Under the pieces are notes generated by a model, which had not been told where the DNA came from, did not search any database, and saw only the letters and a list, made by a program, of their open reading frames with translations. From NCBI GenBank assembly GCA_965287045.1, contig OZ336872.1:94054001-94118000 (forward strand): a stretch of DNA of 64,000 bases, read 5' to 3'. Source of the stretch: Carcharhinus amblyrhynchos. Lineage: Eukaryota. The position numbers and the translations under genes are program-made. Positions 10,385 through 52,056 of this stretch are shown piece by piece (within the stretch, counting starts at the first letter, position 1; each line of letters starts with the position of its first letter).

Positions 10385-10870
10385 CTTAGAATCCCATATA
10401 GAATCCCACAGTGCAGAAGGAGGCCATTCGGACCATCAAATGCACCAACCACTATTCCACCCGAGTCCTATCCCCATAATCCCATGCATTTACCCTGGTT
10501 AGTTCCCCCGACACTAACGGGCAATTTAGCATGTCCAGTCCACCTAACTTGCACATTGTTGGGCTGTGGGAGGAAACCCAGTAAAAAGTCTGACAACACG
10601 AGGTTTCAGTCCAACCGATTTATTTGATAGTAAAGTGTGAGTTTACTATCAAATAAATCGGTTGGACTGAAACCTGGTGTTGCCAGACTTTTTACTGGGT
10701 TTACCCCAGTCCAACGCCGGCATATCCACATCATGACTACTATCGACACGGAGGAAACCCACACAGATATGGGGAGAGTGTGCAAACTCCACATAAACAG
10801 TCACCCAACCTGGGAATCGAACCTGAATCCCTGGCTTTGTGAGGCAGCAGTGCTAACCACTGTGCCATTT
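10385..10870 (-). mobile_element. HE1-like SINE interrupted by a fold-back PLE-type insertion
   Basis: reverse-complement head gaggcagcagtgctaaccactgtgcc at the right end, tail agaatcccacagtgcagaaggaggccattcgg at the left end. Confidence 0.88.
10574..10749 (+). mobile_element. short Penelope-like terminal fragment with inverted duplication (61-bp-arm hairpin)
   Basis: arms 10574-10634 and 10642-10702 are reverse complements with 2 mismatches; followed by tail ccccagtccaacgccggcatatccacatca, shared with 33301-33330 and (inverted) 38447-38474. Confidence 0.8.
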
Positions 10871-11145
10871 CGCTGCCCCATTTCTTAACAGGAAGTTGCA
10901 TTCATTCAACATGAGTCTTGTTACTGAGTTGCTTCTTGAGGATAGTTACAGAGTGGCGAAGGTTTGTTCCCAGGTTTTCTGATGTCTCCCTGCAGTGCTA
11001 TTTACAGTACCAAGGACAAGGTGGAGATTTCCTTTTCCACCAAGTGGCAAGAGAATGTCCAAACAGCATCACTAGGATTGTCTGTTTGTTGATGGCAGAG
11101 GAAGTTGCAAGAGATCACGCCAAGGATCTGGATAGAGTGCCTGGG

Positions 11146-11500
11146 TTAAAAACAAAATATTCTGGATGCTGGAAACCTGGAATAAAAACTGAAAATGCTG
11201 CAAAAACTCTGCAGTTCTGGCAGCACCTGTTGAGAGATAAAAACAGTTAATGTTTTGAGCCCCTTTGACTCTTTTTCAGACTCTTCTTCAGAGTTGAAGG
11301 GGGGTAGAAATGTGATGAATCTTATACTTTCAAGATGGGGTGGAATATAAAGACAGGGATAGGTGGAAGTTTAGGAGAGATTTGGCAAGGATGCCATGGA
11401 CACAAGACAGAGGAAGTGTTAATGGTAGTGATAAAGACTAAAGAAGGTGCTAACACTGGCATAAAGGTAAGACAGCAGAAGAAGAGTCAGCACTCTGCTG
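11146..11500 (-). mobile_element. Penelope-like pseudo-LTR fragment (family B), degraded
   Basis: aaaactgaaaatgctgcaaaaactctgcagttctggcagcacctgttgagaga resembles 34750-34820, which adjoins a PLE ORF relic. Confidence 0.65.
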
Positions 11501-11537
11501 AAAACCTGAATTCATTGGCATTACTAGATAAGGAATT

Positions 11538-11567
11538 GGCCTTTTGGTTAAGATCAAGTGTCGGATC
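11538..11567 (+). pseudogene. U2 snRNA 5' fragment
   Basis: ggccttttggttaagatcaagtgt matches U2 GGCCTTTTGGCTAAGATCAAGTGT at 23/24 positions; continues cggatc versus U2 agtatc, then diverges. Confidence 0.75.
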
Positions 11568-12635
11568 AACTCAAGATGGGGTCAGTTTGGATTTTATTTG
11601 TCTCTTGTGGAGACTGTGAATTGGATCCTATGAATTTGCATTTGGATTTTGGAGCAGATTCAGGTCTGTCAGGTCCATTCTGAGCATTGACTTTGTAACT
11701 TTAAGAATGGAGTAAAAAATTTTTTCTTAAAATCTGTGGATCAGGAATGGTCAGTACAGTCCTCCTTTTGCAATCTCTTGCATTTCCTCTGCTCACCCTC
11801 ACCTCACTCCTACACTGTTCAGATCGCCTCTAATTGTCGACTTTCCTTCCATGCTGGTCTACCAGCTCTTCTAATGTACAGTCCCTGCTTTAGTTGCTAT
11901 TCCCACTGTTCATTAACTCTCAACTGCACTTTCTTTTGACACTGCCTCCTTAATTTTCATCCAAGGCACTCACTCCCCACTCAATGTAACCCCATTTTCT
12001 TAATATCTTGTGTCATTCTCTTTTACATGCACAAGTCATTCATTCATCTCTACTTTTTTATTACATAGCCACACATAATTCTTTGCTTTTCTTTGCAAGA
12101 GAAAAAGTGCCAAAGTATTTGGGCACAATGTCTGAAAATGCAAAAGGTCCACCTTTAGTTAGTGCAGTGTTGTTTCACGTGGCACTTCGGGGAGGTGTAC
12201 CACTGCTATGAATTTTTATGTCCTCATTGTGACTGTTATCATTCATTGGAAAGGAAATGTACCGGCTAATCTTTGAAAATAGTGCATTGGTGGGTCATTT
12301 AACCAACCTAACATGAAATCTTTGTAATAGAAGCAAAAATTGTCTCAAAGAAGGACTATTAGGCGCAATAGCTTAATGGCCAATAGCCTTGTGCTTATAC
12401 ACAAGAACTGAGGGTAATGGTAAATTTTATTGGTATTGGTATTGGTCTCTTGGTTGACCAAGCAGCAGGTTTTGCTGTAAGAGACTGCAGAGTTTAAATA
12501 CCATGGACAAGTACAGCCTGCTTTGACACTGCTCTTCACACAGGTTGAAAAAAGTGACTCTTGTCCTGTCTGCCCTGTTGGGTGGGTGAGCCCTTCTGCA
12601 AAATGTGCTCATGGCTGCTGCATTTGCACAGGATC

Positions 12636-12932
12636 ATAGAATCTCTACAGTGCAGAAGGAGGCCATTCGGCCCATCGAGCCTGCACAGTCTCACCCAGGC
12701 CTTATCCCTGTAACCCCATGCATTTACCCTGCTAATCCCCTGACACTAAGTGGCAATTTAGTATGGCCAATCCAATTAACCTGTACGTCTTTGGATTGTG
12801 AGAGGAAACCGGCGCACCCGGAGGAAACCAAGGAGAGAATATTCAGGTCCTGCACAGGCGTTCACCCAAGGCTGGAATTGAACCCGGGTCCCTGGCACTG
12901 TGAGGCAGCAGTCCTAACCACTGTGCCACCAC
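12636..12932 (-). mobile_element. HE1-like SINE, CR1-type tail
   Basis: catagaatctctacagtgcagaaggaggccattcggcccatcgag ... gaacccgggtccctggcactgtgaggcagcagtcctaaccactgtgccacc. Confidence 0.9.
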
Positions 12933-13564
12933 GACACATGTTGTGGGCATTGTTGATGCTGCTGCCTTTTCTCTTCCTACACCCAGTACAGTGTACGTAG
13001 AGCAGCCCCTATCTTTATCAGTTCCAGCTTCTTGAAGGTTAGTTTTCAGAAACCTCTTCAGTCAGTAAAGTGCTCAGAATAAACAATTAATCAACTGCCC
13101 GAACACTCCAAAGCTGAAATACTCAATTACAATCTGTTACAGCTGATTCGAGTGCCTGCAGTATGTGGCCTCTTGCAATCCTGCAGCCAATGCACTCTGC
13201 AGCCAACTGTGGCAGGTTTTCCTAACTCGCTGATGAAGTGAGACTCTGTCTTTTGTTTTTAAATGTCATTGGAGTCCCAAATACATCATAGAATCCAGAT
13301 TTAAGAAGTACTCATGAGGCTCCTGCCTGCTTGTAGCAGGCAGCACGGCTGACTTGAAAGTTCAGGGAGATACATGTTGTCAAGAGGAAACGAAGCAAGC
13401 TCAGTAAATTCAGTCAGAGGATTTTAATTCCTCCCACGTGTCGTTCCCACTGGAGAGGGTGCGCAGTTAAAATTGATCCAGCAACCCTTTCACCACTCAC
13501 ATTCTCATTTCAGCCAGAATCTACCTGCTATAGCTATTCTCTGTCATGCCTTTGTGTAAATTTC

Positions 13565-14493
13565 TGGCAGAATTCTTCTCCCCACCCCCACAAAAAATAA
13601 AGTTTAATAATGGCGAGAAAAATGGAGTGATCTGCGCCGGTCTCTCAGGTGCATGCCGAACCGCAATCGTTCCGCACTCAAGTCACTTTTTGGAGGGTGG
13701 TGAGTTATGCACCGGTACTGAGGGGACTGAGGCCTAAACACACTGGTGAGCCTGGCCACGGAGAGCTTGGGCATCGTTTCGCAAGGGTGTCCCAATCTCT
13801 CAGTGAAGTGGGAGACACCCGCCTCCCACAGACTTTGGGGTACACCTTGACACAGGTCGCCTGCACTTGGGCATCAGTGCTCTCACAATGGGTGGCCTTG
13901 TGAAAATACTGAAGTGCCTCCCTCCCCCCATCATGATCCCCTCCATGATCCACCTCTGCATGACCTCTCTTGCATAGCACCCCTCATCATGGTCCTCATG
14001 TCCTCACCCCACTCCCCCCGGTATTGCTGCTGGTATACTGGCAGTGCCCAACTGGTGCTGCAGGGGTCCCTAGTTGCCACTGCCAGGATGCATGCTGGAC
14101 ACCATTAGAATATCCAGTGGGCAGTGCCATGTGGGTAGTGTCTGACATGCTCCCAACCACCCCCTGCCCCCTCCCCCACCAGCATGACCAGCTGACCATG
14201 TTTGTGTTTGTGGAGAGCTGTACCAGTTCTTGCCATGGTGGCACTGAGCCCAAGGCCAGAAGATTCCCTGCACTGGATTTTGAATAAGCCATGCATAGTA
14301 AAATGCTATTTTAAATATGCTAATCAGCCTCACCCCCTTTCTGGGCATGAAAGAGTTCGTGCCATTGGAGAGGGGCCAGGAAAATAGCAAACTGCTTGGT
14401 GCTGGGCACTAATTGGATTTTTAGCATTGCACACTAGTTTTTCTGGCTCACCGCACTGTTCGTCGGGCACGGCAAGGTGTCAAAATCACACCC
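13565..14493. mobile_element. GC-rich non-autonomous PIF/Harbinger-type element (degraded)
   Basis: ends ggcagaattcttctcc and gtcaaaatcacaccc resemble the GGGC.(G/A)ATTTT TIR class seen elsewhere in the window; GC-rich body similar in style to 53186-54054. Confidence 0.5.
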
Positions 14494-14574
14494 TTGATTT
14501 TCATTCCAGAATGCACACTTGGTTTACTTGTTTGCCTGTGTGTGACAGACACACTGAACTTCCTCTGTAAAGTT

Positions 14575-14636
14575 GTATATTGTGTATTATCAAATAAATC
14601 GGTTGGACTAAAACCTGGTGTTGTCAGACTTTTTAC
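14575..14636 (+). mobile_element. single-arm copy of the PLE-type terminus
   Basis: tattatcaaataaatcggttggactaaaacctggtgttgtcagactttttac is near-identical to the hairpin arms at 10642 and 38550. Confidence 0.85.
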
Positions 14637-16879
14637 CATGTTATATATTAACATGGCAAGTTTTACCTGTGAACTATTTTCTGGTAGATCTTAGGTTAAC
14701 TCCACGCCCATTGAATATTTTGTATGTTTGTTGCTATTAACTGTGTTAAGAATGCGAACCAAAATGAAGTAAGCAAAACATGATAATCTTATAAATTAAC
14801 TCTTAATTTTATTTTGCTGCAACATATCTGGCAGACGAAGGGTAGCACTGATACTTACTCTAATAAGGCAGATAATCCAATTGGTTCCAAGTTAAATGCA
14901 ATAACTAACAACCGTGCTCCTTGAGGATTATAAAACATTCTTGTTAACAGTTGCTTTAATTTATGGGCAGTGGAAAATCAGGTATGTCAACCTACACCAT
15001 ATGGGGAAAAACATAATTATCCTTGCTGCAAACTGTTCCTTGCAGCCTGTTTTGTAACTATTAATGTCCAGCATAAAGTTTGAAAGTGAAAGTGACTTCA
15101 GCAACACAAATAAGTGCTGCTAATGTTGTTTTAGCCTGGGTTTTTCCAGATCATTTTTCATGGTTTGTCTCTCTGAATAGCAGGAGCATCAGAGACTGTC
15201 CAGTATTGAGTGCCAAGTGTTGTTTTGACAGTCTGATCCCCTGCCGTTTGCCATTTGACTGTGTTCTGACATGGCTCCAGAACGACTCTTTGTTTCTTTC
15301 AACTACAGGGGTCAGAGGTTAACAGAAAACTCATTTTTCCCCAGCGGTGATGATTTTGGAAATAGGCAAATATTCAGTATTGAGCTGATATTCAAGACTT
15401 GAATGTCTATCCAACCTAATGTTTGGCATTAATTGATTTTTGTGATGATTGAACAATCTTCATTTGATACATCTTAAAAGTATGACTATAAATCAGGATT
15501 TTGTTCCACAACTGAGTGGTCATTACGTTGGGTTCAAATTATAAAATTAACATGGACCCTCTTTTGCTCTATTGTGGGTTAATGATGGTGCTATTCCTAC
15601 TAATTTTGATGAACAAATTACTGTAATTAAGGTGCTAATTGTGCCTAATTTAATTGATTTCCATCTCAATCTCAGACTTTCTTAAATATACAAAATGTAA
15701 TTATAATTAATGTTGCGTTGAATAGCTCTTAATTGTAAGTGATGTATTTCTAATAGACTCCCATTTGAAACAACTAGTTCTATACTTAAAAGTCTCACTA
15801 GGCTTTTCTGTTGAAATCGAAACTTGTCATAAGACAAAAGTTTCACCTTTTTGCTTGCAAGCATAATAATTCAAAAAGTAATGATTTGTAAATAAAAAAT
15901 TTGTAAATAAATAGTTTGTCCAAAAGTCTCCAGCCAATGAACTTGACAGTTGAATGTGTTTGTTTGAAAATAAGTGCATTCTTGTTGAAAAAGACATCCC
16001 AGCTTTGAAAAATGTCCCATTTTGAAGCGTGCCAGGATGGGAAAGTGATTAATGCAGTGGCTAAGCAAATTAGCATGTCAAAAGCTTTGAATCAATACCA
16101 GTACTTTTTGCACTAGATGCAGAGGGGGGGAAGCCTGAGAAGCACCAGGAAGCTCTTGACAGCTGTGCCAATGTGCAAAAAAGGCTGTCGATGGTAATGC
16201 AGACATGGAAATGCTTTGGCAGCGAGGCTAATCCCAAAAAACGACTGGAGCAGATTAGTCAAAAACTACTTCAAAGAACCTAATTGCCTCAACAGAGCAA
16301 GGTGGAGAAATTGAGAACAGTGTAAAAAACAATTGGTGGTCAGTATCAAGCCAACACTTGATAGACATTGCATTAAATATTTACTCCACCCATCTTTTGT
16401 AGAAATAATTAAACAAGATCATTCCTGAACAAAGAGCTTGGCATATTAATATTTTACACCATCATAATTCTGGTAATAGATAAATATTAAATTCTTGCAT
16501 TTCAGATTGAGGCTGAACTTGAGTTTATAAATCTGTCTAGATTTGACAGATGTTTAAGCATGAAATTATTTTTGTAATGACTAGCTAATCTTTATATATA
16601 TAATATATATATCTTTCAACTTTTATTTTGCTGAAATTTTTGATTGGCCATACATTTGTAACATATTGTTGTATGAAACTGCTCAGTTCAGTTGACTCAG
16701 GTATATCCTATTTAGTTGGCAGCAGCTAAACTTCATTCTACTGTTGCATATGTTAATTCCACAAAACTACCTCCCTTGCAAGCTTTTTGTCAACTGAATA
16801 CTTCACTTAGTGATGCAGGTTAAGTTAGCCTACTCAGCAAAGTAACTTAGACAATGTGCTTGCTGACCTTTATGGGCAT

Positions 16880-17690
16880 CTAGTCCATCAATCTCTTGAT
16901 TTTTAAATACTCAAATCCCTCCTTGGCCTCACTCCTCCTGTCTTTGCAATCTTCTTCAGCCTTACAACTCTCAGAACTCTGCATTCCTCCAATTTTCGCC
17001 TCTTGTGCATCCCCCACAGCTTTCTCCCAACGTTGATTCAGCTGTCTAGACCGTAAACTCTAGAATTCCCTCCCCAGTCTTCTCTTTTCCTTTACAGTGC
17101 TTCTCAAAATCTGCCCTATGACCAAGCATTTGGTCACCTATCTTAATATCTCCCTCTCTAGCTCAGTTTCTTAACTTTTTATTAGCTCATGGGACATTGG
17201 CATCGCTGGCTGGCCAGCATTTATTGCCCATCCCTAGTTGGTGGTGAGCTGCCTTCTTGAACAATTGATAACACTGAGTGGCTGGCTAGGTCATTTCAGA
17301 GGGTATTTGAGAGTCAACCAGTGGACCTGAAATCACATGTAAGCCGGACCACGTAAGGACGGCAGATTTTCCTTCCCTAAATGACATTAGTGAACCAGTT
17401 GGGTTTTTCAATCAATCGAAAATGGTTTCATGATCATCAGTAGATTATTAATTCCAGATTTTTTTTATTGAATTCAAATTCCAGCAGCTGTTGTGGCAGG
17501 ATTCAAATCTGGAGCCCCAGAACATTAGCTCAGTTTCTAGATTAATAGTCTAGCGGTAATATCACTAGGTCATTGCCTCCTTTCACTGTCAATAGTTGTT
17601 TGAGAATTACATCTGTGAAGTACTTTGGCATATTTTATGCTGTTAAAGGTGTGATATAGGTACTATATACATGTTGTTGCATATAGCTGA
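16880..17690 (+). mobile_element. L2-clade LINE 3' fragment interrupted by a SINE
   Basis: tttaaatactcaaatccctccttggcctc...tagaattccctccc...ttaaaggtgtgatata...atgttgttg; similar to 32300-32680. Confidence 0.6.
17175..17580 (-). mobile_element. second tRNA-derived SINE family
   Basis: minus-strand head ggaggcaatgacctagtgatatt...agatttgaatcctgcc; 3' tail (ccagcatttattgcccatccctagttg on +) shared with LINE ends at 26915 and 33620. Confidence 0.7.
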
Positions 17691-17726
17691 AAGCAAATGA
17701 TATGTCCGCAGAGTTTGCTTAGTGAC

Positions 17727-17852
17727 CAATGCTGCCTCTAAGTTACACGGAAACCTGAAAGTTCTTGTGCAGGCCGCATTTAAGTTATGCGCACAGCTGT
17801 CCAAAATACTTGAAAGGACCCGTGAACTACGAAAAAAAAGAGGGTATATTTG
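17727..17852. mobile_element. small hAT-type MITE
   Basis: imperfect TIRs caatgctgcctct / agagggtatatttg, flanked by an ~8-bp duplication (tagtgac core on both sides). Confidence 0.55.
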
Positions 17853-20004
17853 TAGTGACCACGACATTGTTGCTGTGACACCTTAATTTAACGTTATGGT
17901 TTTTGAAAACAGCGCAGGGTTCAATTGTAAGAATCCAGCATGTTATGGGTTTTTGTGAGCTGAATATTTCCCCTTGTGATACGGACTTAGTTAGCCTTCT
18001 CAGCAAAGTAACTTGGACAATGGAACATAGGTCCTGTACCCACATTGACTCTGGGATGGAATTCTGTTTTGAATACTTTCCCTATTGATCCAGTCCGCAA
18101 CTTTGAGCTCATTCATAAAGGTAACTTACTGCATTGTGAACGTTTGCATGTGCTGAATGGTTTCTCCCCTGTTTGATCATCCAGAATGAGTAATTTTTGT
18201 GTTGAAATATGATTACCAGAACAGTAGAAGTCTTAACCTCCTTCAACACATAAAATTCTCACACAGTCCATCTTGAAGCACCCAAATAAGAGTTGACATG
18301 AACATTTTAGTAAACTATAAGAGTCAGTGTGTAAAATTTTAATAACATGTTCATTTATATTGGGGGGCAAACACCTGGCAATAAACTTATGGATTTTGTC
18401 CTTCCAAGTGTAGTCTGTGTTTTGAAGTATAAAGTTAACAGCTGTATAATACTAAACAGAAGTGTTGGTGGTTACATGTCTTTCAGTGCTGTGTGTGGTA
18501 GTGGCACAGCTATTTGCAGTGATAAATAAAGGGGCACTTTTATATTTCATGAGACTTGAGTGTTCCCCCAAGCACAGTTTCCATACAGCCATTGCAAGGT
18601 AAATAGTGAAACTCCTCTGAGGTTTGCTCAGAACAGTGGCATGAAAGCCCCACCAAAGATGTTAGCAGCCTTCTTTAAGAAACTCCAGCAGCTTTGCATG
18701 TAATATTCAACCATTTACACTGCATCCAAGATTCAAAAGTCCCATTGATACCAGTGTGATATAACATTTCCTGAAGACAGCACACAAGAATTATTTTAGC
18801 AGAATGTTTTTGATCTTTACTGGCAGGTGTGTGATTTATAAAAAAAACCCCTGCAGCTTTTAATGATTGTAGAACTTTGCAGTTTCTAAAATTGGCTCCA
18901 TTGCATTGTTTTGCTTTTTAGTGTTAATTACATGAATAATTTTGAATTGCTACTATCAAATGAACACATCAACTTTTAAAAAAAACTACTCGTTCTTGCT
19001 ATGGTTTGAGCTTGCTGCGTGTAAATGCACCACTTCACTGCAGACAATTTCAAAGTGCATCAGTTGGATGCAAATGTATTCCCCACTGTCTGTACAAATG
19101 GGGCAGTGCACTCTGGGGAGTCTAGTGCGTATAAACAATTGCAAATCTGGTTCCGTCAGAGTTAAAATTAGCCCTCCATATTCTCTATTCTGTAAAGCAT
19201 CGGTGTGCCACAATTTAAGTTGCCCGTTTCCCCTTCAAGCGACTGGAATAAACAGTGACAAGCAGACAAATATCCACATATAAAGGACACAGTACTGCAA
19301 ACACAATTCCAGCCTGCCCTTATCAGATACTCTGCTGAAGCTGGCTTATGATAAGAATAATACACAGTAGTTAGCCACAGCTTAACTAGATCTTATCAAT
19401 TATACTTCAACGTGCAATCTTGAAAGGATCAATACATGTGCTGTTTTTGTGTGGAGAAAGCAATGCTACTTTATCTCATGCTATGATGCACTGTAGATTA
19501 AGAACAACACTGTATTTGATCTGTAATGGTTACTAGAGCCCTTTCTAAGAAGCATGTTTCATCTTTAGAGAATTACTTGTTAGTAAACAAGTACATTTTG
19601 GTTGAGTTTGATATGAGAGCAATCGTAAAACACAATTTGCACATTAAAATTTGGCTACATCCAGTCTAAGAAGTAGGAACAACTACGTTAAATTTAAAGC
19701 AATTTTTTTTACTACAATGCATGTATTCTTGCTTTAACTGAGCTTCTGTGAGTTTAAATGTGAATTCTATTTATTGTTTTCTCTCAAATATAATTCAAAT
19801 TTAACTTGATTAAATTGGCTCTTGTAATTTGAATTCTATTCTAGGGAAGCAATAAAATCATTCACATTTGAATACACAAAAGTATCTCAGGCTGGTTTTG
19901 GAAGGGGAGAAAGTGCTGCAATGAGTTGTATTTATTTATTTGGATGGTAGCAGAGCAAGCTGGGCTGATGCTGCTCCATTGAAGGACACTGCTCGTTTTC
20001 TGCT

Positions 20005-20150
20005 ATAGTTATAGAGTCGTGGAGCAATACAGCATGGAAACAGGCCCTTTGACCCAACCAGTCCATGCCGACCATGGTGCCCTCCCAACTATTCCCAATT
20101 GCCTGCTTTTCACCCATATCCCCCTAATCCTTTTCCATCCGTGCACTTAT
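20005..20150 (-). mobile_element. CR1 LINE 3' tail
   Basis: atacagcatggaaacaggccctttgacccaaccagtccatgccgacc resembles the CR1 tails at 50830 and 52080. Confidence 0.7.
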
Positions 20151-20239
20151 CCATATAAAATGTTCTGCTATATTTGTTTTCTATTAAACAACATAAAAGT
20201 TAAATAATTTAAATATTTGAAGAATTTGTCATTTACAGT

Positions 20240-20583
20240 GGCTAGGATTATCTCAGAAGGTGGGGTAAGTCCCATGTGCAGTTCTGAGCCTGGACAGGCA
20301 TGCAGCGGGAATGGAGCCGCAGTCTCCCCAGAGGCGACCTCTTAACTGGTCGATGGCCTGACAGCCAGCCCTCCAATCAGCTCTGCAGGTTCAGCAGTGC
20401 CACAAAGAGGTGCTGAGGCTCTAAGGAAAACGAGAGAGCATCTTCTCGCAGGAGGGACAATGCAGCAAGCCCTGAGGATCGGCATGCTAATCCCTTTCGC
20501 AGTGATATTGGGACCACATTAGAGCTTCTGGTAGCCTCCCTCTGCTTTCCTGCCTGCGAGCTGTGGGTGGGAAAATCCTGCCC
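20240..20583. mobile_element. Harbinger-type MITE
   Basis: ends ggctaggattatct / ggaaaatcctgccc. Confidence 0.55.
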
Positions 20584-20679
20584 AAAAATATTGTCACACT
20601 AAAAAAAATCAGAATTCTTGTTTGCAGTGGGAGGAGGACTGTCATTTGACACAGTGCTGTCACTGAAAAATATTCAGAT

Positions 20680-20869
20680 GGGCGGGATCTTCCTGCACCC
20701 AGCTCATTTTCCAGTGGCAGCGGCAGCTCACCATTGGCTGCTGGGGTAACCTTCCAGTCCCACCAATGTCTATGGCACTTCACATGCCTTGCCCATCCTG
20801 CTGGCAACCCTTCAGTTGGATCACCTTTGAGAAGATCCTGTCACCAAGATGGGCTGGAAAACCCTGCCC
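20680..20869. mobile_element. Harbinger-type MITE
   Basis: TIRs gggcgggatcttcc / ggaaaaccctgccc. Confidence 0.65.
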
Positions 20870-21194
20870 AATGTGTCTACTGGAGTTTGCTTCGTTATAG
20901 CTTATGTTTGGAAAGAGGTTTTTCTGAATACATTTTCCCAAGGACAACAATGGATTTTAAATTGTGTGACAATGCTTCCAAGTAGAAAAGAATTATTCAA
21001 ATAACTGATGTGCATTCTACCATATAAATTCTTAAGATATAGGAGCAGAATTAGGCCATTCAGCCTATCATGTCCGCTCCACCATTCAATCATGGCTATA
21101 AATGGGAAATAGTTGTTACTATCCTGAGCCCTCATTTTGTAAGTAGTGCAGCTTTACTGCACATTCTTTCGTGTTGCCTATGTATAGTTGCTCG

Positions 21195-21319
21195 CGAAAC
21201 CCACGCAGAGTCGGGGAGAACATGCAAATTCCACACAGTCAGTGACGCAAGCAGGAATCGAACCCGTGTCCCTGGCACTGTGAGACAGTAGTGCTAACCA
21301 CTGTGCCACCATGCCACCC
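21195..21319 (-). mobile_element. HE1-like SINE, 5' half
   Basis: gaaacccacgcagagtcggggagaacatgcaaattccacacag...gtgctaaccactgtgccaccatgccaccc. Confidence 0.85.
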
Positions 21320-37900: not shown

Positions 37901-38059
37901 GTCCTATTTCATGATCCACAGTCTAGGTAATCAGCCTTTTATATATTACCATGTCTCAAATTTACGTGGACGTTATCCACTATATTTCCTTCATCAACTT
38001 CTATCAATCAATTCAATTAGGTTAGCCAAACATATGATTGGACTAGAGGTTACTTCGAA

Positions 38060-39934: not shown

Positions 39935-40210
39935 GTTTTTTGCATGAGATGTTAAATAGACAATTCATTTGCATCAGTGCACATAAAATATCTTGTGGCA
40001 CTATTCAAAGAACGCAAAGGGGTTCTTCCAGTAAATTGACCAAGAACTAACCCTTAACCAACATTGCTAAAACAAATCTGGTCATTTATCTCCTAGCTTG
40101 CACACAGCAAGATACTAGCTAACTGATGTGTTTCCTATATAACAACAATAACTACATTGCAGAAATATTTGGGACACCCTTAGGCCATGTTAATTCAAGT
40201 ATTTGTTTTA
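39935..40210 (+). mobile_element. degraded Deu-domain-type SINE 3' part
   Basis: gagatgttaaatagac...taaaatatcttgtggcactattcaaagaacgcaaaggggttcttcc...aaacaaatctggtcatttatctc. Confidence 0.5.
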
Positions 40211-40261
40211 ATGTGTGGAGAAGCTTTCTTCGCTATATTCTACTAGTGCTTTGGATGACAT

Positions 40262-40507
40262 ATGATGGGATTTTCCAGCGCCGCCTGCCACTGAGATCGT
40301 CCAGTCCTGCTGAGTATCATTGGACTTTAGGCTGGAAAATTGCAGCCCTTGGCTAAGTACCTCATATTGGTTGATCAAAGTCCCTCAGAGAAAATGGGTG
40401 GGATTTTACAGCCTCGCTTGTCCCAAAACCGAAGAAATCCTGCCCGAGGTCCACAAATCTTTCTTTTGATGATTCCTGTGATAGGTGAGGTGATAAAATT
40501 CTGGCCA
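40262..40507. mobile_element. two adjacent ~90-110 bp MITEs of the GGG..(G/A)ATTTT TIR class
   Basis: gggattttccagc/gctggaaaattgcagccc and gggtgggattttac/gataaaattctggcc. Confidence 0.55.
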
Positions 40508-42139
40508 TTTTTTTTATTCTTTTAAAAAAAATTGTCAGGAAAGCTGCTCTACTAGGAGCTTATCTGATTCCCAATTAAAGATAAAATGATACATAATGGA
40601 AGACCATGTCTCCTAATAACAACACATCATCATTGGACCCATGGCATGACAACACTGGCACATGTAAAGAAACAGCCCCCAGTCTACTTAGTTAACTTGC
40701 AGCAAGACTTGTGTCCATGGGTATTATACATGCAAGAGGAAAGCATATGTGGGTTTGCCTGGCATCATTTTCCTGAAAGCGATGAAACTTATAAAAAAGC
40801 TAATGCACCAGTTTCACTATTTCAGCCGGGCAGCGTCTATAATAATTGCTTTGATATGTGTGTTTTATTCTTTGAGGAGATTCATAAGATATCTGACAAG
40901 CCAAAATCCAGTAAACTTAGCATGGGCAAGCTTCTCACATAAATTGCTGTGCAATAAGTAAAATAATTGTATGGAGTGTTTGGAGACATTTCATTGACTT
41001 GATAACAGACTGTATCAGTATTTTGTTCGTTGTAAAAGTGGTGATACCAGACTGTAACCGTGCTCTTTGCAATACACCAGCTGTTCTCCCAGACCATGCA
41101 GGAAACAGCCTGACCCATCAATTTACATTTGATGGTTTGGCACTATTTTGGTAATTTTGCAACACTTCCGTATTTTACTGATGATACAGATTTCCATGCT
41201 GAAAACAAACCTACCTCATAATCTGACTGAGCCCAACCATTCTGTTAGGCAAGTGGTCACCTTGGCATCAATCTAAAATTACATTCCAAGACAGAAAGCA
41301 TTCATTCAGCACAACTTCTTAAACTAACTGTGAAGTACTCCAAAAAAATTCCATTGTACAAGAATCTGGACAAGTCTGAAATAGCAAGACATTCAAGAAA
41401 TATGACCAAATTTAACTTGGAGCACTGTGTGTGGAACACAAGTAATCGCTTTGTGTATTTAAAGGTGGAGTGCCAAGCTCCTCTATGATTTGCTGTATTG
41501 TGTAGATGACCTTTACTATTTATTTTTCAGGTGGTAAGTTGACCCTGTCATTGATTTGGCAAAGTCAGCCTCTACAAGCCTTTCAAAGGCTCGTGCTACA
41601 ATCGAGCTATTGGCGACATGAGTTTAATTTTATCAGTTCCCTCCAAGTAACTGAAGGGAGTGGGGCTGGTAAGAGAGCAGGGACCCATGTCAGGATAGCT
41701 CCCCATCACTACCCTACTGCTGGGAAAGCTTCCTGACCTCTGAGAGAAGACAGGCTGTGAGGCAGATTGGTTGTCTGCTGAAGGAAGGTGTGCAACTGAT
41801 GTACATAATTAAGGCCCAATGTTAGGCCATTGTATGGGACTGCCTCCATTTTTCTAGAGATGGAGTAACAACAACCACCACCCCCCCGCCACTTCAAGTG
41901 AGGAAGCCACTAGCTTCATTAAGGGCCTGTGGCAAACCAGGGGACTATCGGAGCCACAGGCAGAAAATACAGCCCTGTGGCCCCAACTATCACAGTGGAG
42001 GGCTTTTGCTTCTATCCATGGAGCCCTGTGTCCTTGATGCCGAAATTTTAATTTTTACATCCCTACCTGACAGTGTTTCATGTTCAAGTGGCCTCGCAGT
42101 CTCCTCGCTGGCTCAGCAGTGCCCATCTCTCCTAGGATA

Positions 42140-43525
42140 GATCGGTCATTGGGAAAGTGTTAAGAGTCCATTATAAAGGATGTAATAGCAGAGCATTTAG
42201 AAATGCATAATCAAGCAGAGTCAGCATGCCTTGACGAAGAGGAAATCACGCCTGACAAATTTATCAGCATTCTTGAGGTGGTAATGACCATGATGGATAA
42301 AGGGGAACCTGTAGATACAATATGCTTGGATTTCATTAAAAAAAGCAGTTGATAAGGTACTACACAAAGGCTAATTAATAAGAGTCCATGGTGTTGGAGG
42401 TAGTATGTCAGCTTGGATAGAAGATTGGCTAACTGATGGAGGAGTTGGCGTAAGAGGACCTTTTCAGGATGACAACTTGTAACCAGTGGTCAATGTTGGG
42501 GCCACAATTACTTACAACATATATTAATGACTTGGACAAGGCAAGTGAACTATTACCAAGTTTGTGGATGACACAAAAATGGGTGGGAAGGATGGTGGTG
42601 GTGAGGATGATGCAAAGGCCAGAATTTTACCGCCTTGCCCACCCTGATTCTGGGGGGTGGGCAAAGCTCATTTTCCGTTGGCCTTGGGCGGGATTGTATG
42701 AAGCTTGAGCGGATGTGCTGGTAAACTTTTACCCAGACGGGCATAGACAGATTGTCTTGTGAGTGGGCAACGACTTGTCAGATGGAATATAATGTAGGAA
42801 AATGTAACATCATGTACTTTGGTAGGAAGAGTAAAGGAGCTCAATTATATTTAAATGGAGGAAGCTGCAGCAGTGAGCGTGTCCTTGTAGCTAGCACGTA
42901 AATACAGCAGACAATAGGGAAGGTAAATGAAATGTTGGCCTTTATTTCAAAGGAAATGGAGCATAAAAAGGGAAGTCTTACTAAAACTATCCACACCTGG
43001 ACAACTGCAAACAGTTTTGTTTGTTTTATCTCAGGAAAGATGTGCTGGCATTGGAAATTGCCTAGAGAAGAGGTTGATCGGGTTATCTTCTGTGGACAGG
43101 CTGAGTAGGCTGGGCATGTATTCAGTAGAGGCTGGAAGAATAAAAGACAAACTTATTGAGACATATAAGATTCTCAGGAGGTTTGACAAGGTAGCCGCTC
43201 CTTGTGGGAAAGTCTAGGATCTCAGGGCATAATCTCAGAGTAAGAGGTCACCCATTCAAGTCAGAGATGAGGAAGAATTTATTCTCTCAGAGGGCAATCT
43301 GTGGAATTCTTTACCGTAGAGAGCTGTAGAGGCTGGGTCGTTAAATATGTTCAAGGCTGAGATAGACAGCTTTTTAATCAATAAGGGAAACAACAGTTAT
43401 GGGGATAAGGAGGGAAATGGGGGTTGAGGATTACTACATCAGATCAGTCATGATCTCATTGAATAGCAGAGCAAACTTGACAGGCTGAATGGCCTACTGT
43501 TGCTTCTATGTCTCATGATCTTATA
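42140..43525 (+). mobile_element. degraded CR1 LINE (RT to 3' end), apparently inserted in a GC-rich MITE (~41650-43730) and itself interrupted by a MITE (~42617-42735)
   Basis: SIIKDVIAEHLE..KQSQH..RKSRLTNL-like reading, atatattaatgacttggac (YINDLD), 3' end aggctgaatggcctactgttgcttctatgtctcatgatcttat. Confidence 0.85.
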
Positions 43526-43911
43526 GTGGTACTGTTGTGGCTGCTGGTCCCTCAATTGGGCTGACAGTATCAGAAGCCTGCCTGCTATCTTTAATTGGAT
43601 GGTAAGCTCACAGACAGCCAGTTAGGAGCCATCCTACGATAAAATTTTAGGGTGATCCCACTGCCAGGATATGTGGGCTTGGACTCACTTTTCAGCCTGG
43701 CGCCAAAGTCAGGAAAAATCAGCCTTATTAGTTTCAGTAAACTAATTATTGTTGGTCAATAAGGAATTCACATAAGCCAAGAAAAGGATACTTTTCCTAT
43801 GTTAAACATATTTTACAACAATATTGCAATAAGATGAGCTAATATTTTTACGCTGATTATTCCCACAAAAATATATTTTTAAACCTTGCAGAATTTCTAA
43901 ATTAAGCAGAA

Positions 43912-44193
43912 AGTAAAGTTTATTTATTAGTCATAAGGAGGCTTCCATTAACACTGCAATGAAGTTGCCACACTCCAATGCCTGTTCGGGTACACTGAGG
44001 AAGAATTTAGCATGGCCAATGCACCTAAGCAGCATGTCTTTTGGCCTGTGGGAGGAAACCAGAGCGCCCGGAGGAACCCCACATACACATGGGGAGAGCA
44101 TGCAGACTCTGCATAGACAGTCACCCAAGCCAAGAACCAAATCTAGGTCTTGGCGCTGTGAGGCAGCAGTGCTAACCATTGTGCCATCTTGCC
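43912..44193 (-). mobile_element. HE1-like SINE with alternative tail
   Basis: aagtttatttattagtca ... ggcgctgtgaggcagcagtgctaaccattgtgcc. Confidence 0.9.
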
Positions 44194-45679
44194 ACAACAG
44201 ATGCATTCTGAAACATATGACAAAGAGCTACACATAGAAAGAAAGGTGGGAATGGTGCTGATTTTCCAGAAAATAGTCATTATGCAAGAAGTATTTTAAC
44301 TTGAGCTTTACGTAATTTACTGCGATTCTGTAGAACAGTTAAAAAGAATCTGCCTTATTGTTTGTGCAGTTGCCCTGGAAGAAATGTCATTGCGGAGGAA
44401 TTTTAATTGTAGTTTTCAGGACGTTTTATTATCAGCAAAGGAGATTACAGGCACACAGTTGGGAAACTGCTCATCGCATAGCACGAGGGGTGGTGCACAG
44501 GGGTGGTTAATGAACTCTTTAGGAAGACAGATAAAGTTGTTTCAGTCAGCACCGTATAAATCAATGGATTATCATCGAATTGGAATTTACCTGCTGGCAG
44601 TGTTGGCTGGGGGCCCATTCCCAGGGAGTTGTCTCAATACAGTGAGCTATACAAACCTGCCAAAAAGAATCCCTATTTAGCCCTGAGGTGAAAATGCAAA
44701 ACACTTCAGTTATAAGTGACTTAAAACAGCAACCTAAAAGCACTTAACCTGCTCCGCTGCCTCTTTTTGCAATACTGGAAGTAAAATTATAATTTCTTTG
44801 AATGGTTTTCTGAAGAACGGATTTGCTGTGCTTTCCCTTTTGAAATCAGCAGCTAAATCCAGGCCAAAATGAAAGCTTTTCTCTGCTCGTTTAAGGCTTA
44901 TAAGTGAAGTGAGTTTGTCCATCCTCAACATGGAGGTTGGTGTGTGAGTTCATCATACAAAACTGCTATATATTTCAGCATTAATTGGTGCTCCAGTATA
45001 TGTCTCAATCAGAGATAACACAAGGATGGCTGGTGCTGGTAATGGAAATGTCACACTAAGCAGTGGGAGGTGGTTCTATGGGACCAAAGTGCATTGATGG
45101 AGTAGATTAAGGGAGGCTTACTCTACATTCATAAGAAGTGCTTGATGTTCACATTTGGTTAAAAAGGTTTCTCAGTGCTGATGCCCTTCATGTTAATAAC
45201 CACAAATTATATCTGCAAAAGTTTCAAGTTAGTTTCCACTGACAGAGGCCTTCATTATCTATAGGTATGTGCACGTTTAATTTAAAGTTGCTCAAATTAA
45301 TACATAAAGGGAATTGGAGATTGTAATACGTCATGCCATCTATTTTATGCTGTGCTTCTTTGTACACTCAACATAAAACAGAGCTAAGCTCAAGAACTTG
45401 TTAGATTTACCTTTAATTTAGAGTTAGTCAATTCTACTTGTCCAAAATTGCAGCAGGTATTGCGATGATTTTTTGTTTCATCTCAAATTACCTGAAGAAA
45501 ATAATTAGTTGTGAGTAACTATATGGTGCAGAAAACATCTATAGCTGTTCTGAATTATATCACATCTTTTCATTCAATAAGTGTATGCCAACTCTAGCTT
45601 TACGGCTAGAGCAGAAACATTAAATTAAAATTTTTCACAAATTGAGAAATCACCTTTTGTTTAAAAAAAACTCAACTTT

Positions 45680-46016
45680 TGTGGACAGCGCAGTGCTAAC
45701 AGTTGTCTCACATTGCCAGGGACCCGGGTTCAGTTCCAGCCTTGTGTGTATGGTGTTTGCACACTGTCTCTGTGTTTATATGGGTTTCCTCCGGATGATC
45801 TGGTTTCCTCCCACGGTCCGAAGATATGCAGATTAGGTGAATTGGCCATGCTAAATTGTCCCTTAGTGTCCCAAAATATGTAGATTAGATGGGATTAGCC
45901 ATGGTAAATGTTTGGAATTACAGGGATAGGGCCAGGGCAGGATGTTCTGTCGGGGAGTCAGTGCAGACTTGATGGACTGAAAGGCCTGTTCTGCATTGTA
46001 GGGATTCTATGATTCT
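45680..46016 (+). mobile_element. HE1-like SINE, CR1-type tail
   Basis: gccagggacccgggttcagttcc...gggtttcctccggatgatctggtttcctcccacggtccgaagat...gtagggattctatgattct. Confidence 0.9.
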
Positions 46017-47817
46017 TTCTCCCTCCTGCAGGTGATGACTTATCCTGGCATGTGGTTCTGCTTGTGGCAGACATTCTTTTGAACTTAACCTGACTGCCCA
46101 TTGCTTGCATGTAGATTGGCCACAAATTGTGAGGAGCCAGTAAACTCTCCTTCATTCGAATTATTTTGTATATCTTTGCTAGCTGAACTCCACCTGATTT
46201 TCTGTGGGTCAGACATTCATTGCATTTAACTTTGGTGGTGGAAGATTCTGCAGGTCAGTCTGCCAAAGCATTTACACACATGCCGTTTACCTAATTGGGA
46301 TGCTCATAATAAAGTGCCTGCATACCTCACTGTCCACGCACACTTAACATCATTCCTGTCCAAGGAAATTATGTCTATAATGTGGCTTTTACAATCTTGT
46401 GCTAGCCAATCACAGTGCTGACATATCAATCTCAACGTGATTAATTCCAACTTTTAGTACTAAATATAAACAGTTTGGCTGAGTATAAACTGAAGTGAGT
46501 ATATAGATCTAAGTTACTATCTAAATTGAACGTTTCACACTGTTTGTTGAAAGATAATTCATTATCTCATGATTGTTAACTTTTAGAATAAAATGGACAA
46601 AGTCTATTAGTCTAACCATCAATTACGCTAGTAACAAGTCCCCTGTGTTGAAATTTGTATACTTAGTGAGTGACCTAATACTATTTTGGTGTTTGATTTT
46701 AGTTAAGTGTGGAGTGGGAGAGCATATTTAACCTTTGGTGTCAAGATACTAGGCTTTTAACTGAGAAAAGATTAGCCAGTGTATATATTTCTTTATCTCT
46801 TGCCTTGTTCACTTTTATAGCGGGCAAAAGAATGTTACATAAATACCTGAAAAATAGTCAAATGATTTATGATGAGCATCCTTACTGGCTTCGGCCTTTC
46901 ACTTTTTACCCCCTCAATTAGTCCACATCAAACATGTGTTGAGTGTACCTGTGACTCACCAAAAAACTTGCTGCACTCCAATGATGATCACTCACAGGCA
47001 CAGACTGTTAGCCATGCCAACTGGATCATTGAATAATAACTGTTCTTTGTTTCAATAACCTAGCTACTCGGGTTGATCCCAGCTGCTCTCTGAGTTTGGG
47101 AGTTAAATAGCTTTTTAAGGATCAATGTGGCTTAAAAGATCAGAGATAATCCCAGGCAGACTACCCAGTTTTTTAAGATATGGATCTGTGCTTCCTTCAC
47201 TTTCCTTTGTTCCAGGAATCATGTAAATAATTCCCCTGTTACAAGTGTGAGATCAGTATAATTCCTCAAACTGATTATTTATTATTGCACAACATTATTA
47301 ATGGATAGTGTTTTATAAATCACAACTACAAGTTCAATTCATATCCGGCTTCAGTTTATTTGTTTTGCCAAGATACCAAAGCAGGAGGAGAGAGTAGTTT
47401 AAACAATAGAATATTTCATTAACTACTGTGATATGTGGTCCCAACACAAGCTACACAGATCGCCAGCTTCAATACTCAGGAGGTGTTTTTTTTCTGTCTC
47501 AAATATATTTGCAATATTTATATTCTCAAGCAGAATGCCTAATCTCTGACATGACTTAGTAATTCCACTAATTTAAGTCTTCCCATTTTCCTTCTTGCTC
47601 CAAAAGAAGTATTTAATCTTTTGCTAGCAGTGTGCTCATTAATATGAAGGAGGGGACAGGGCCTGTCTCCGCTATTTAAACACAAGACACAGGCTGAAAG
47701 CGTCTCTGGGGAAAGTGTTTGTCTCTGGGACAGCTGAACAATCTGAAAGGCTGACTGTACAGCTCAGCTCTCCAATCACTTCTCAGTATTGAGTCCTTGC
47801 GAAAACCAACCTTAATA

Positions 47818-47945
47818 TGCAAAAGCAAAATACAGCGGATGCAGGAAATCTGAAATAAACACAGCAAATGCTGGAAGCGCTTACGTTCTGGTGGGATTCG
47901 TGAATAAAGAAGCAGGTTTAATGCTTCAGGTCTTTTATCAGAATG
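47818..47945 (-). mobile_element. PLE family B terminal fragment
   Basis: aaaagcaaaatacagcggatgcaggaaatctgaaataaacacagcaaatgctggaa is the reverse complement of 31530-31580. Confidence 0.65.
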
Positions 47946-49396
47946 GCTAACAAATATCTTTGTGAAGGTCAGGATTTTCAATTTCATTCTGTATGTTAAA
48001 TTGTGGCTGTTCGCATTTAATCTGCCCCTGATATATATGGAGATCAAACATTCATGGATTGGTGCACTCTAGAACTGACCCCATAGAGTTTGAAAGGATA
48101 GTGGGTCCAACAGATGCCCATGTAATTACAGGCATATCACAAATGTCCATCTGCCCTGCGGTACTGGAAGGTCTACCGCCTGCCAGTTATCGGGGCAACG
48201 GGAGTGGTGGTGGGGTGGGCGGGGGCAGGTGGTGGTGCGGTTGATAACACAGTCTACCCAAAACAGATCATTTCACATTCCATTTGGCCGCTGTGTTGAA
48301 GGGGGCCGATAATAATTTGGCTCTTTCCAAATAAATAATGTTGCCACCTTCCCTGGCCCAGATTCGTAACCCTCGTAGTGCCTGTTGTACCCTCTGAGAG
48401 GTTGGTATGTCTCGTCCGACCATGCAGAGCCTGTAGCCTTACAGTGGATTCTTTATAGACCAGAGAAGCAGCAATTTTCAAGGAAGTGTTTGTCTTTCAC
48501 CCCACCCACTCAGTCAAAAATGATGAAGGCTTTATTCTTTACAAGACTGAGTAAACATTACTGAGTAAACATCGCTGCATGAGGTAAACACCTAGTGTAT
48601 CCAGATCCTGGCCATTTTTCACACTCCCCCTAGTGTTATAATACCTGCAGAGTCTTTTAAAAAGGAACTTGAACTTCCAGTGAATGTGTGGAAGTATTAC
48701 TCAGTGTTTAATACTTTAATTGTAACACATTAACTAAAAACAACACTGACGAGTCACTATTTCAGCAGGCAATTTAGGGTTGCATTCTCCCATCTGTGAC
48801 TAATTCCAGTGGTGGGGCAGGAGCAAGGCATGTTTCCACTATGGAGCATGGTGGGAAACTATGCCATATCTTCCTGCCCTGACCTCATTAATTATGCACC
48901 CCGGGGGTTCAGCACCATGTTCCATGGTAGGTCAGACATAAAGGTTTGCATCCCACCATCAGATCTGAGCGCCACGTTGAAAAAATGCCCAGCATCACTA
49001 AAGAAAAAAACATGGACCTAGAGAAAAAGATGGTTCTCCAGAAACACTCTGAGGCTGGAAGATGGACCTCTTTGATGACACTGAACCTAGAAGACCTGCC
49101 TGTAGATACTCCCTCCACCCACTGGGTTGGTATTCCGGGTTACAGAGTTAGTGGCAAACTCCATCCTGAATGCTGGAAGCAACTCCAGCTATTGTTAAGG
49201 TAAGTCCTGACTTCTGCATACCACATTGTTCCAGATGTGTTCTGAATTCTCTCCACACCCGCCATTGAACCTGTCAACGGGCCATTGGAGAATTCGGCTC
49301 TTAGACTCTAAACTGCAGGAAAACTGTCCTCACTCAAAATGATCAAAAATCCCCTTCCATGGTTATGCTTCACCCTGTTCTTTAAGGAGACATTTA

Positions 49397-49921
49397 GGCC
49401 ATGATTCTCCAATTTCAACCCGCAACTTTTCTGTCACATCGCAGTGGGAGACATGCGTCTGTGGCCTTGAGTAGGGATTTGCGCATGTGCCGGTAACACA
49501 TGCGCATCTCCCAGAGGCTGCGAATAGTCGCCAGCCAGACTCTGCTGGAAACTGGCGGGAAGGCAGGTAAGTCATTTAAATCTGTTTTTAATCTATTTTA
49601 ACTGTGCCTTTTAGGTCCTGATCAGGCCGTGGGGGGTGGGCTGGAGGGGCAGCACTGTGGTGGCCCCAGGCTGGCCAGTGATTGGGCTGGCCAGCAAACA
49701 GGAGATTGACAGTTTGAGGCCACTGTGCATGCATAGAGCTCCGGAACTGTCAAATCTTGGCATGAATAGACCCCTTCCCCCCTGGTTTCTTAATGAGATT
49801 CATGACTAGGACCTCTTCAGTGCACAAAGTGCGGCGATTCAGGTGAGAAGCTGAACTGACAGAACAGTCGGGATTTAGAACAGTTCCCTGACAATTCAGT
49901 ACTTTTGGGAGAAATTGCTCC
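49397..49921. mobile_element. Harbinger-type MITE
   Basis: ends ggccatgattctcc / ggagaaattgctcc; internal gcgcatg(c/t)gc motifs as in 53186-54054. Confidence 0.6.
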
Positions 49922-50387
49922 TCTTAGTTCTCCAGGAACCAGCATAAAGCTATTCCTGGTTCATTTTCCTTTTTCTAGCTAGTTTACTTCTACTCCCAGT
50001 ACTAACTTTCATGAGATATGTTAGCTTGGTGATCTGCCCTCCCACCCCTCTAGCCAAAGTAGGGTGAATCTTTTAACATTGCTTAAACCTTCACTATCTC
50101 GAGCTGCCACCTGCACATTGAGTAGTGTGCAGTAGAGACTTGCCTCTATTTCTCTGCTCTCACTTCCTCTGGCTTGTCATGAGATTCAGGGATATCTTTA
50201 GAAAAGCTTGTCCCTCAATCTTCCTTCTCTAAGCACATGGGCCTTGTATCTGGATAGAAATGCTAATTACCTACCCTCTCAACTCTCCAGTTCCATTATT
50301 TTTATCTTGGAAGTATATAGACAAAATAAATTGTAAATAGACATTTGCAAAACCTTTTATTTCGCCACCTCCCTGGCAACAAAAGAC

Positions 50388-50514
50388 AGCCCTATTTGTG
50401 AATAGAACTCCCACTCACCTGACGAAGGGGCAGCCAGCACTCCAAAAGCTAGTGGCTTTTGCTACCAGATAAACCTGTTGGACTTTAACCTGGTGTTGTG
50501 AGACTTCTTACTGG
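50388..50514 (+). mobile_element. PLE family A terminal fragment with hammerhead core and 9-bp TSD
   Basis: TSD acaaaagac at 50379-50387 and 50515-50523; cac-ctgacga...ccaaaagctagtg; arm aacctgttggactttaacctggtgttgtgagacttcttactg. Confidence 0.85.
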
Positions 50515-50804
50515 ACAAAAGACTGACCATGGTCAGCACAGCTGCTCTGGTCATTGTCTACAGCTATGAATATTTTGCATCTTCTTCCCAGTAAGACAAC
50601 ATGCCGTCTACATTCAACCCTTAACAGCCATGCCACCCGGTTGGTTTTCTCAACAGAATTCAGAACAGGTCACATGACCTTCATCAATCCTCCATTTTAT
50701 CCTATATTAAAGACACAGTCCCAAAAGATAACAATCTTCTAAACCTTTTATCTGTAACAGTAAATCCCTTTCAGAGCTCCAGAAGAAAAAACCGAGGAAA
50801 TTCA

Positions 50805-52026: not shown

Positions 52027-52056
52027 ATTGAGACTCTAAGCTGCTGACTGTGGATT

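Follow-up and report, generated by a model that had tools for sequence, protein, structure and literature searches.

Short copies of a Penelope-like element in a shark EphA4-like intron suggest a probable two-ended integration at a spaced palindrome

We analysed a 64,000-nt stretch of Carcharhinus amblyrhynchos DNA (GCA_965287045.1, contig OZ336872.1, positions 94,054,001 to 94,118,000; hereafter the window), in which five small insertions of a Penelope-like element (PLE), e1 to e5, lie in an intron of an EphA4-like receptor gene. They are 5'-truncated copies of a Neptune-type PLE that entered with a 12-bp target site duplication (TSD) inside the motif TG-N16-CA, and it is quite probable that they arose through a double nick by a predicted protein dimer and the head-to-head joining of two primed cDNAs. 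The two target strands are probably cut together and the RNA copied inward from either cut end, rather than a single copy being made that folds back. An earlier annotation of the same letters (the sequence-only reading) had offered a snap-back origin or a non-autonomous hairpin family; both are mostly rejected, and the two-ended integration model is quantitatively supported.

The same element terminus was present at all five window sites and fell into two subfamilies, as the sequence-only reading had described. That reading was also right that three copies are inverted pairs in which a single arm continues into a tail (e1, 66 nt at 94% identity; e4, 53 nt at 100%; e3, 46 nt at 89%); e2 and e5 are single tail-less arms. 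The predicted folds of the e1 and e4 hairpins had z scores of about -20 against shuffled sequences. The TSDs had been read as 13, 11 and 9 bp, lengths that turned out to be chance extension and decay of one 12-bp frame. All five copies fit CTG-N2-[12]-N2-CA(G/T), with 12, 10, 11, 12 and 10 of 12 bases matching in e1 to e5, respectively (registers set by program for e1 and e4, and by eye for e2, e3 and e5). At e4, contigs from the DNA runs of three other organisms link position 38435 to 38601 and leave a single TSD copy, and e4 is a true insertion; at e1, no contig spanning the empty site was found. The description of the copies as almost wholly hairpin needed amending for e3, which consists of an inverted arm of about 150 nt, about 65 nt of filler and a 75-nt direct arm plus tail. 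A source for this filler was sought among the fetched loci, which gave only two matches of 14-17 nt.

Genome copies were sampled with an anchor on positions -47 to -18 only, blind to hairpin shape; coordinate 0 is the A of the ATG of the element's open reading frame (ORF), into which the tail runs. The set combined 90 of the first 100 of 9,785 matches, 90 of the first 100 of 557 matches and 1 incidental copy, and comprised 172 copies once 9 duplicate loci had been dropped; 30 e4-like hairpins were left out of all unbiased counts. The results showed that 147 of the 172 copies were head-to-head and 25 were solo. Among the 141 hairpins with both junctions visible, the exact TSD was 12 bp in 54, 13 bp in 35, 14 bp in 14, 15 bp in 10 and 16 bp in 1, with a shorter exact TSD in 11 and none in 16. 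When solos were included, apparent lengths of 12 to 16 bp numbered 57, 36, 14, 10 and 1, compared with 65, 35, 14, 5 and 2 predicted by a fixed 12-bp duplication with chance extension. In the 57 copies with an apparent 12-bp TSD, TG stood at -4/-3 of the duplicated segment in 50, CA at +3/+4 in 51 and both half-sites in 45 (background 7.8%, 8.0% and 0.6%), and the full CTG and CAG were found in 32 and 34. Of 121 sites, 78 had a TG-to-CA spacing of 16 and 33 a spacing of 17, where one site may count at several spacings. These results demonstrate that the target is the dyad TG-N2-[12]-N2-CA (TG-N16-CA), with a near-fixed 12-bp duplication.

We counted start sites in 103 hairpins with the 12-mer in register, 96 per side being free of inserted bases. 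Tail-less arms started at -42 to -33 in 89 of 96 cases and tailed arms at -4 to +4 in 91 of 96, with a median spacing of 38 nt, and only 1 of 141 inverted arms ran past -20. A search anchored on the arm gave 1,780 matches, the first 100 of which held 49 tailed and 51 tail-less arms by hand count. Pairing was assessed at 30 arm-anchored loci, several of which overlap the main set. Of the 16 tail-less arms, 12 were matched with a tailed arm (in one case ending at -11), none with another tail-less arm, and 4 lacked a visible partner; the 14 tailed arms were each matched with a tail-less one (in one case reaching -19). These findings demonstrate two arm start sites, near -38 and 0, with one of each per insertion.

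Microhomology at the outer junctions averaged 1.19 and 1.23 nt on the two sides, compared with 0.46 and 0.38 nt after permutation, and exceeded all 5,000 shuffles. The junction microhomology noticed earlier is thus real and present at both outer junctions, but it is short (about 1.2 versus about 0.4 nt), and the 6-nt match aaaccc at e1 leans on a base seen in 1 of 242 tail arms, that of e1 itself.

The parent is an endonuclease-bearing (EN+) PLE with a single ORF for a reverse transcriptase (RT) and, at its C terminus, a GIY-YIG domain, pseudo-long terminal repeats (pLTRs) in partial tandem, an inverted 5'-truncated copy and a one-sided tail. Locus L061 contains an inverted 849-bp copy (99% identity), a direct partial tandem of the pLTR and a 3,023-bp unit, pieces of which matched RVT_1 and GIY-YIG above the Pfam cut-offs. 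A naturally intact 893-aa ORF lies between pLTRs at L280:3531-6209 (G000:C1:24052000-24061500), an element that ends without a tail; here the whole-protein scan matched RVT_1 and did not report GIY-YIG. This intact ORF suggests that the family may still be active. The PLE origin and the 5' truncation with an inverted end, as read from the window, are supported, full-length copies do carry an RT plus GIY-YIG ORF, and an origin of the hairpins at integration is supported too. The L280 ORF has DKG, YIDD, a CX4CX2C linker and the EN Cys/His pairs, kept in 85-88 of 88 aligned proteins; C755, C760, C763, C798, C802, H838 and H844 are kept in 85-87 of 88. Its closest named proteins are from sharks, and a PDB sequence search with the ORF gave no match. 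The CX2-5CxxC zinc finger of the linker and the CCHH of the EN indicate a Neptune/Nematis type, because they match the features described in the cited sections of PMC8557442; this clade call comes from motifs. The full-length copy at L061 sits within a 36/40-nt tandem repeat array (L061:1-2350 and past 6954).

The arm-plus-tail 30-mer had 9,785 exact matches in the 2.9-Gb genome and a control had 0, and the family is abundant, with about 10,000 young copies. The older subfamily gave 488 matches to a 1-in-16 subsampling pattern; its 12-mer with both half-sites was found in 7 of 28 loci, which are noisier and too diverged for equal tabulation. The pLTR contains a minimal type I hammerhead (core and helices in 35 panel copies; folded), with a predicted cut at -96. 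Among these panel copies, helix II (-120 to -104) differs in length and in its loop between source haplotypes, with a fixed core and a seemingly paired stem. Such variation under a constant fold suggests selection on the ribozyme fold, although the templates are mostly uncut.

With rather less assurance than for the general reading given at the outset, we favour a concerted double-ended target-primed reverse transcription (TPRT). A homodimer would read the spaced palindrome like an integrase or a restriction enzyme, two start sites would be obligatory, and the inverted pLTR plus tail would be the normal product of every insertion. Each monomer of the predicted dimer would nick 2 nt 5' of CA(G) on its strand, and the nicks, 12 nt apart, would leave 12-nt 3' overhangs. 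Both 3' ends would prime reverse transcription with 0-3 nt of pairing, sometimes on two RNA molecules. One RT would start at the tail end (about 0) and its partner about 38 nt further in (about -38), and these staggered starts would leave a tail on one side only. The cDNAs would be joined head-to-head through template jumping, or after one of them had briefly folded back and annealed to the other. Equal arm lengths would follow if both RTs reached the same RNA end, or if the shorter cDNA folded back over a few bases and annealed to its partner, and solo copies would be those in which only one end was extended or kept. Internal priming, and the stopping of most cDNAs within about 150 nt (for the most part at -123 to -146), would account for the tiny size of the copies.

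We modelled residues 1-345 as a dimer, with no alignment used. The score was 0.47, against 0.20 for the best control, with at least 18% contact agreement between runs and a pLDDT (predicted local distance difference test) of about 60. In this model the N-terminal interface lies at residues 42-77. Among microbial proteins, the mark applied to this score was attained by 21 of 30 homodimers of solved structure and by none of 23 monomers; among eukaryotic ones, the figures were 17 of 29 and 0 of 30. The model supports but does not show that the ORF protein dimerises.

The copy-end rate per nt was 0.18% at -48 to -88, 0.96% at -89 to -99, 0.41% at -100 to -122, 2.2% at -123 to -146 and 0.52% at -147 to -200. 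Ends accumulate most heavily immediately 5' of the ribozyme, at 16-39 nt beyond the start of a TATA-like box at -162, and this pile-up may mark the RNA 5' end or an RT block; for comparison, the D. virilis promoter is described as internal and TATA-less in the cited part of PMC2377424. The copies e1, e2 and e4 belong to a minor class ending near -91. Self-cleavage of the pLTR mini-hammerhead could give an RNA 5' end at -96 and thereby fix the apex of the smallest hairpins (e1 and e4), an explanation that we consider unlikely. The end rate is locally raised at -89 to -99, and 8 arms among the 30 e4-like copies start within about 2 nt of the predicted cut. However, arms reaching -92, -96, -100 and -102 numbered 10,515, 10,028, 9,720 and 9,626 genome-wide; about 97% of those that reach the predicted cut continue past it, and losses there exceed the baseline by only about 4%. 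Joining at -91 would in any case be promoted by the AT-rich, self-complementary stretch at that position, and uncut RNA was the main template in vitro (PMC11167929). We rejected the cut as the main cause of the apices on account of this read-through and the principal pile-up upstream, and hammerhead cleavage appears to set few of them. An Rfam scan of the window returned no hammerhead, only generic microRNA-hairpin matches below the gathering score.

The self-primed or template-switch step suggested earlier would, in its snap-back form, have a tail-primed cDNA fold back and serve as its own template until about 38 nt from its start, after which microhomology would join it to the second strand; the self-priming proposed in PMC3846280 is a related scheme. 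We judge this improbable, even if it fits the single tail per insertion, the concordance of the arms and their correlated lengths. Mismatch was 1.2% within copies, arm against arm, and 3.9% between copies, so the greater within-copy identity that had been looked for is present. Arms agreed at one diagnostic site in 102 of 102 copies (65 expected) and in helix II in 58 of 71 (8 expected). The apices comprised 89 overlaps, 18 blunt joins and 40 inserts, many of them locally templated; overlaps of at least 3 nt (52 of 107 against a null of 5%, inflated by BLAST end calls) and palindromic apex fillers also fit a snap-back. Against this, the further-reaching arm in 146 copies was the tail-less one in 76 and the tailed one in 43, with 27 within 3 nt (P = 0.003); among differences of more than 25 nt, the tail-less arm was longer in 30 and the tailed arm in 16, the tail-less excess reaching about 2.4 kb. 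Since a fold-back copy cannot outrun its template, snap-back of a tailed cDNA fails for at least 30 copies. In addition, the arms of about 8 of 147 copies (L214, L093, L211, L191, L086, L058, L090 and L038) differ, by eye, at two or more linked family polymorphisms, which points to two templates or to later conversion. Tail-less solos with their own 12-bp TSD (e2 and e5), the 4 of 16 tail-less arms without a partner in view, and the dyad target, which indicates two equivalent nicks, also speak against it. Snap-back is largely refuted as a general cause; what survives of the suggestion is a short fold-back at the apex during joining, which is possible.

Some apices were more elaborate. The fillers in L032, L117, L183, L208 and L066 are built from short stretches of the element nearby, copied several times over and reaching about 250 nt in total, and resemble repeated slippage or re-priming. 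L047, L219, L056 and L250 are complex insertions in which fragments from within the ORF, or a further piece of the element, were captured between the arms or next to them through template jumps.

It is very doubtful that long palindromes were formed at insertion and later trimmed by central deletion and arm-to-arm conversion. Palindromes are generally unstable, and a private base in the tailed arm of e1 matches the host side of the other arm, as found in one of four informative cases. However, ends pile up at fixed element coordinates and solos end similarly, near-perfect long inverted copies persist (849 bp, 99%), and trimming leaves the start sites, the TSD and the dyad unexplained. The private base of e1 (about 10698, position -35) pairs perfectly with host bases adjoining the other arm, for which arm-to-arm repair or copying through the junction is possible. 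Host bases copied into the tailed arm were rejected as a general trait on the same one-in-four count.

A non-autonomous hairpin family, MITE-like (miniature inverted-repeat transposable element) or retrozyme-like and copied as a unit, can practically be set aside: a small number of apices are found more than once (4 copies have one such junction and 3 have its mirror image) and e4 has 40 close hairpin relatives, yet the recurrent apices lie on a natural 3-nt inverted microrepeat and span different helix-II haplotypes, and the ends are asymmetric rather than terminal inverted repeats (TIRs). Apices lay from 60 nt to more than 2 kb into the element, and the median hairpin size was 243 bp, with 32 of 141 at 200 bp or less. 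All 32 of these had distinct breakpoint sets (30 distinct apex pairs), and sizes formed a continuum up to full length. The distinct breakpoints rule out a fixed non-autonomous unit and refute the hairpin family of the sequence-only reading as the main source. In a search with e4 as query, 40 of 231 candidates were scored and all were hairpins; 30 were fetched, and their loops differ. A MITE or TIR DNA transposon was likewise rejected in view of the asymmetric ends, varied breakpoints and RT-encoding parent; neither fixed TIRs nor identical breakpoints were found, and the near-constant TSD length that was found does not define that class alone. A non-LTR retrozyme was rejected as well, the copies being head-to-head, not tandem, and three of the five window copies (e1, e2 and e4) being without a ribozyme. 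The hairpins are dead by-products.

Several points weigh against two-ended cutting and priming. Most arm pairs are concordant, as snap-back also predicts, and the mosaic arms could come from later gene conversion. Arm lengths are correlated, being within 25 nt in 100 of 146 copies (31.5 expected) and in 17 of 50 long ones (3.3 expected), so that independent cDNAs need an added step (the same RNA end, or fold-back then annealing). The sites with a spacing of 17 mean that a minority may be 13-bp cuts, exact TSDs of at least 7 bp were missing from 16 of the 141 hairpins and from 14 of the 23 solos, and the register of apparent TSDs longer than 12 bp was picked using the motif. Eight junction calls were hand-corrected or came from an earlier pass, and the anchor pattern leaves out copies mutated at -47 to -18. 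Of 7 eukaryotic pairs lacking an older relative of solved structure, only 1 reaches the dimer mark. Finally, the PLE PAc of the Poseidon clade prefers ATT, and its starts are reported without homology (PMC11167929), in contrast to the shark sites.

The coordinates of the window features are collected in Table 1. All five insertions lie within the same intron, so the earlier statement that they are placed in host pre-mRNA stands; EphA4 is the best solved relative of the flanking coding exons. No RNA datasets covering window positions 38000-39000 were listed. The same intron contains, at 52160-52792 on the minus strand, what we take from sequence likeness to be the 3' end of the ORF of a young CR1-like long interspersed element.

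Table 1. Positions of the insertions and the host intron in the window
Feature	Position	Strand	Remarks
e1 left TSD, 12 bp	10569..10580	.	Within a short interspersed element (SINE); CTG-TG precedes; 12/12 match to right copy
e1 inverted tail-less arm	10581..10634	-	Element positions about -37 to -91
e1 apex (7 nt), then direct arm with tail	10635..10749	+	Tail extends to about +16 of the ORF start
e1 right TSD, 12 bp	10750..10761	.	CA-CAG comes next
e2 solo tail-less arm with TSDs	14570..14649	+	Arm 14582-14636; degenerate TSDs 14570-14581/14638-14649 (10/12), dyad frame
e3, older subfamily	33025..33342	+	TSDs 33025-33036/33331-33342 (11/12)
e3 inverted arm	~33037..33188		Decayed mini-hammerhead on the - strand
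e3 direct arm and tail	~33255..33330		Follows about 65 nt of filler (~33189-33254)
e4, young subfamily	38436..38612	-	TSDs 38436-38447/38601-38612 (12/12)
e4 tail	~38448..38485		
e4 arms	38486..38538 and 38550..38602		100% identical
e5, older subfamily	50378..50525	+	Solo tail-less arm ~50390-50513, decayed mini-hammerhead core
e5 TSDs	50378..50389 and 50514..50525		10/12, dyad frame
Host intron, EphA4-like receptor gene	5934..56898	+	About 51 kb between two coding exons; contains all five insertions

The tail of e1 is unusually long, and only two such ends occur genome-wide. These are e1 (10569-10761) and L125 (G000:C1:29205838), the only two genome copies with the exact +16 tail-to-SINE junction, at the same SINE position. 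Their apices differ, and they therefore appear to be independent insertions. A SINE-homing subfamily, an idea raised by their common +16 tail and SINE site, was rejected since these are the only two copies. The SINE carrying e1 presumably has its own internal repeat. That the e1 TSD may be this repeat was considered; no contig bridges e1, and L125 is truly duplicated at the same SINE position. Recurrent insertion next to the same motifs inside other repeats was seen at L037, L043, L068, L108 and L221, at L081/L066 and at L085/L234, as dyad preference together with repeat abundance would predict.

The layout of an inverted end plus tail has already been published (cited sections of PMC3846280, PMC8557442, PMC8969392 and PMC2377424). 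The origin of PLE inverted repeats and one-sided tails is called unresolved in the cited part of PMC8557442, and the later steps of PLE integration are called unvalidated (PMC11167929). Among the papers listed by our literature search, none was described as reporting a spaced-palindrome target, fixed stagger or paired starts for PLEs, and such rules may be given in repeat catalogues or the supplements of PMC11167929, which lie beyond its scope; the cited portions of PMC12910113 and PMC8969392 contain nothing on PLE targets. The closest layout is that of Pen2a_Av/Pen2 in Adineta vaga, with an inverted 5'-truncated pLTR and a one-sided tail of 30-40 bp (cited sections of PMC3846280; scheme in Craig et al. 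2021, PMC8557442). As far as these sections go, it shares with the shark element the head-to-head pLTR, the one-sided tail overlapping the ORF start, the TSD, an inverted arm about 37 nt shorter and the palindromic apex. For Pen2, the cited part of PMC3846280 gives TSDs of 8-10 bp in few copies, reports no dyad and proposes self-priming on an antisense template, whereas the shark element has a near-fixed 12-bp TSD in TG-N16-CA, strictly paired starts and some mosaic arm pairs.

In vitro, TPRT by PAc (Poseidon_Ac, Anolis) involves cutting and extension of both strands, and two RT starts bracket the tail (Frangieh et al. 2024, PMC11167929). The shark element is alike in having two starts close to the beginning of the ORF, one on either side of the tail, and the PAc results count in favour of the two-ended model. 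The PAc dimer is modelled via an N-terminal helix, and ribozyme cleavage is not required, uncut RNA being the main template (PMC11167929). The main text of that paper reports no stagger or dyad and does not ascribe the inverted copy to two-strand priming; the shark element differs from PAc in its Neptune-type linker, a GC-containing dyad and a 1-3 nt microhomology excess. With the Neptune clade it shares the C-terminal GIY-YIG with CCHH, the CX2-5CxxC linker, DKG and the pLTR mini-hammerhead; the cited sections on the Neptune/Nematis clades describe a microsatellite insertion bias, not a spaced dyad (PMC8557442). The shark pLTR shares its minimal core and palindromic helix III with metazoan PLE hammerheads and non-LTR retrozymes, according to the cited parts of PMC4209133 and bioRxiv 10.64898/2026.07.22.740005. 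Unlike those retrozymes, the shark element has no tandem monomers and no unit-length propagation, and the e3 and e5 cores are decayed.

Young products formed in vivo number in the thousands in this family and yield exact predictions as to cut site, stagger, paired starts and two-template mosaics, and a naturally intact ORF is available for testing them. In L1 twin priming, the second target strand primes a second cDNA, and an inversion with microhomology at its junction results; this happens in a minority of insertions, and the inverted part comes mostly from RNA that lies upstream and does not overlap. In contrast, the shark arms copy the same segment, start 38 nt apart and are paired in 147 of 172 copies. 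If the two-ended model is true, a sequence-guided, fixed, staggered double-strand cut with writing on both strands differs from the TPRT of R2 and L1.

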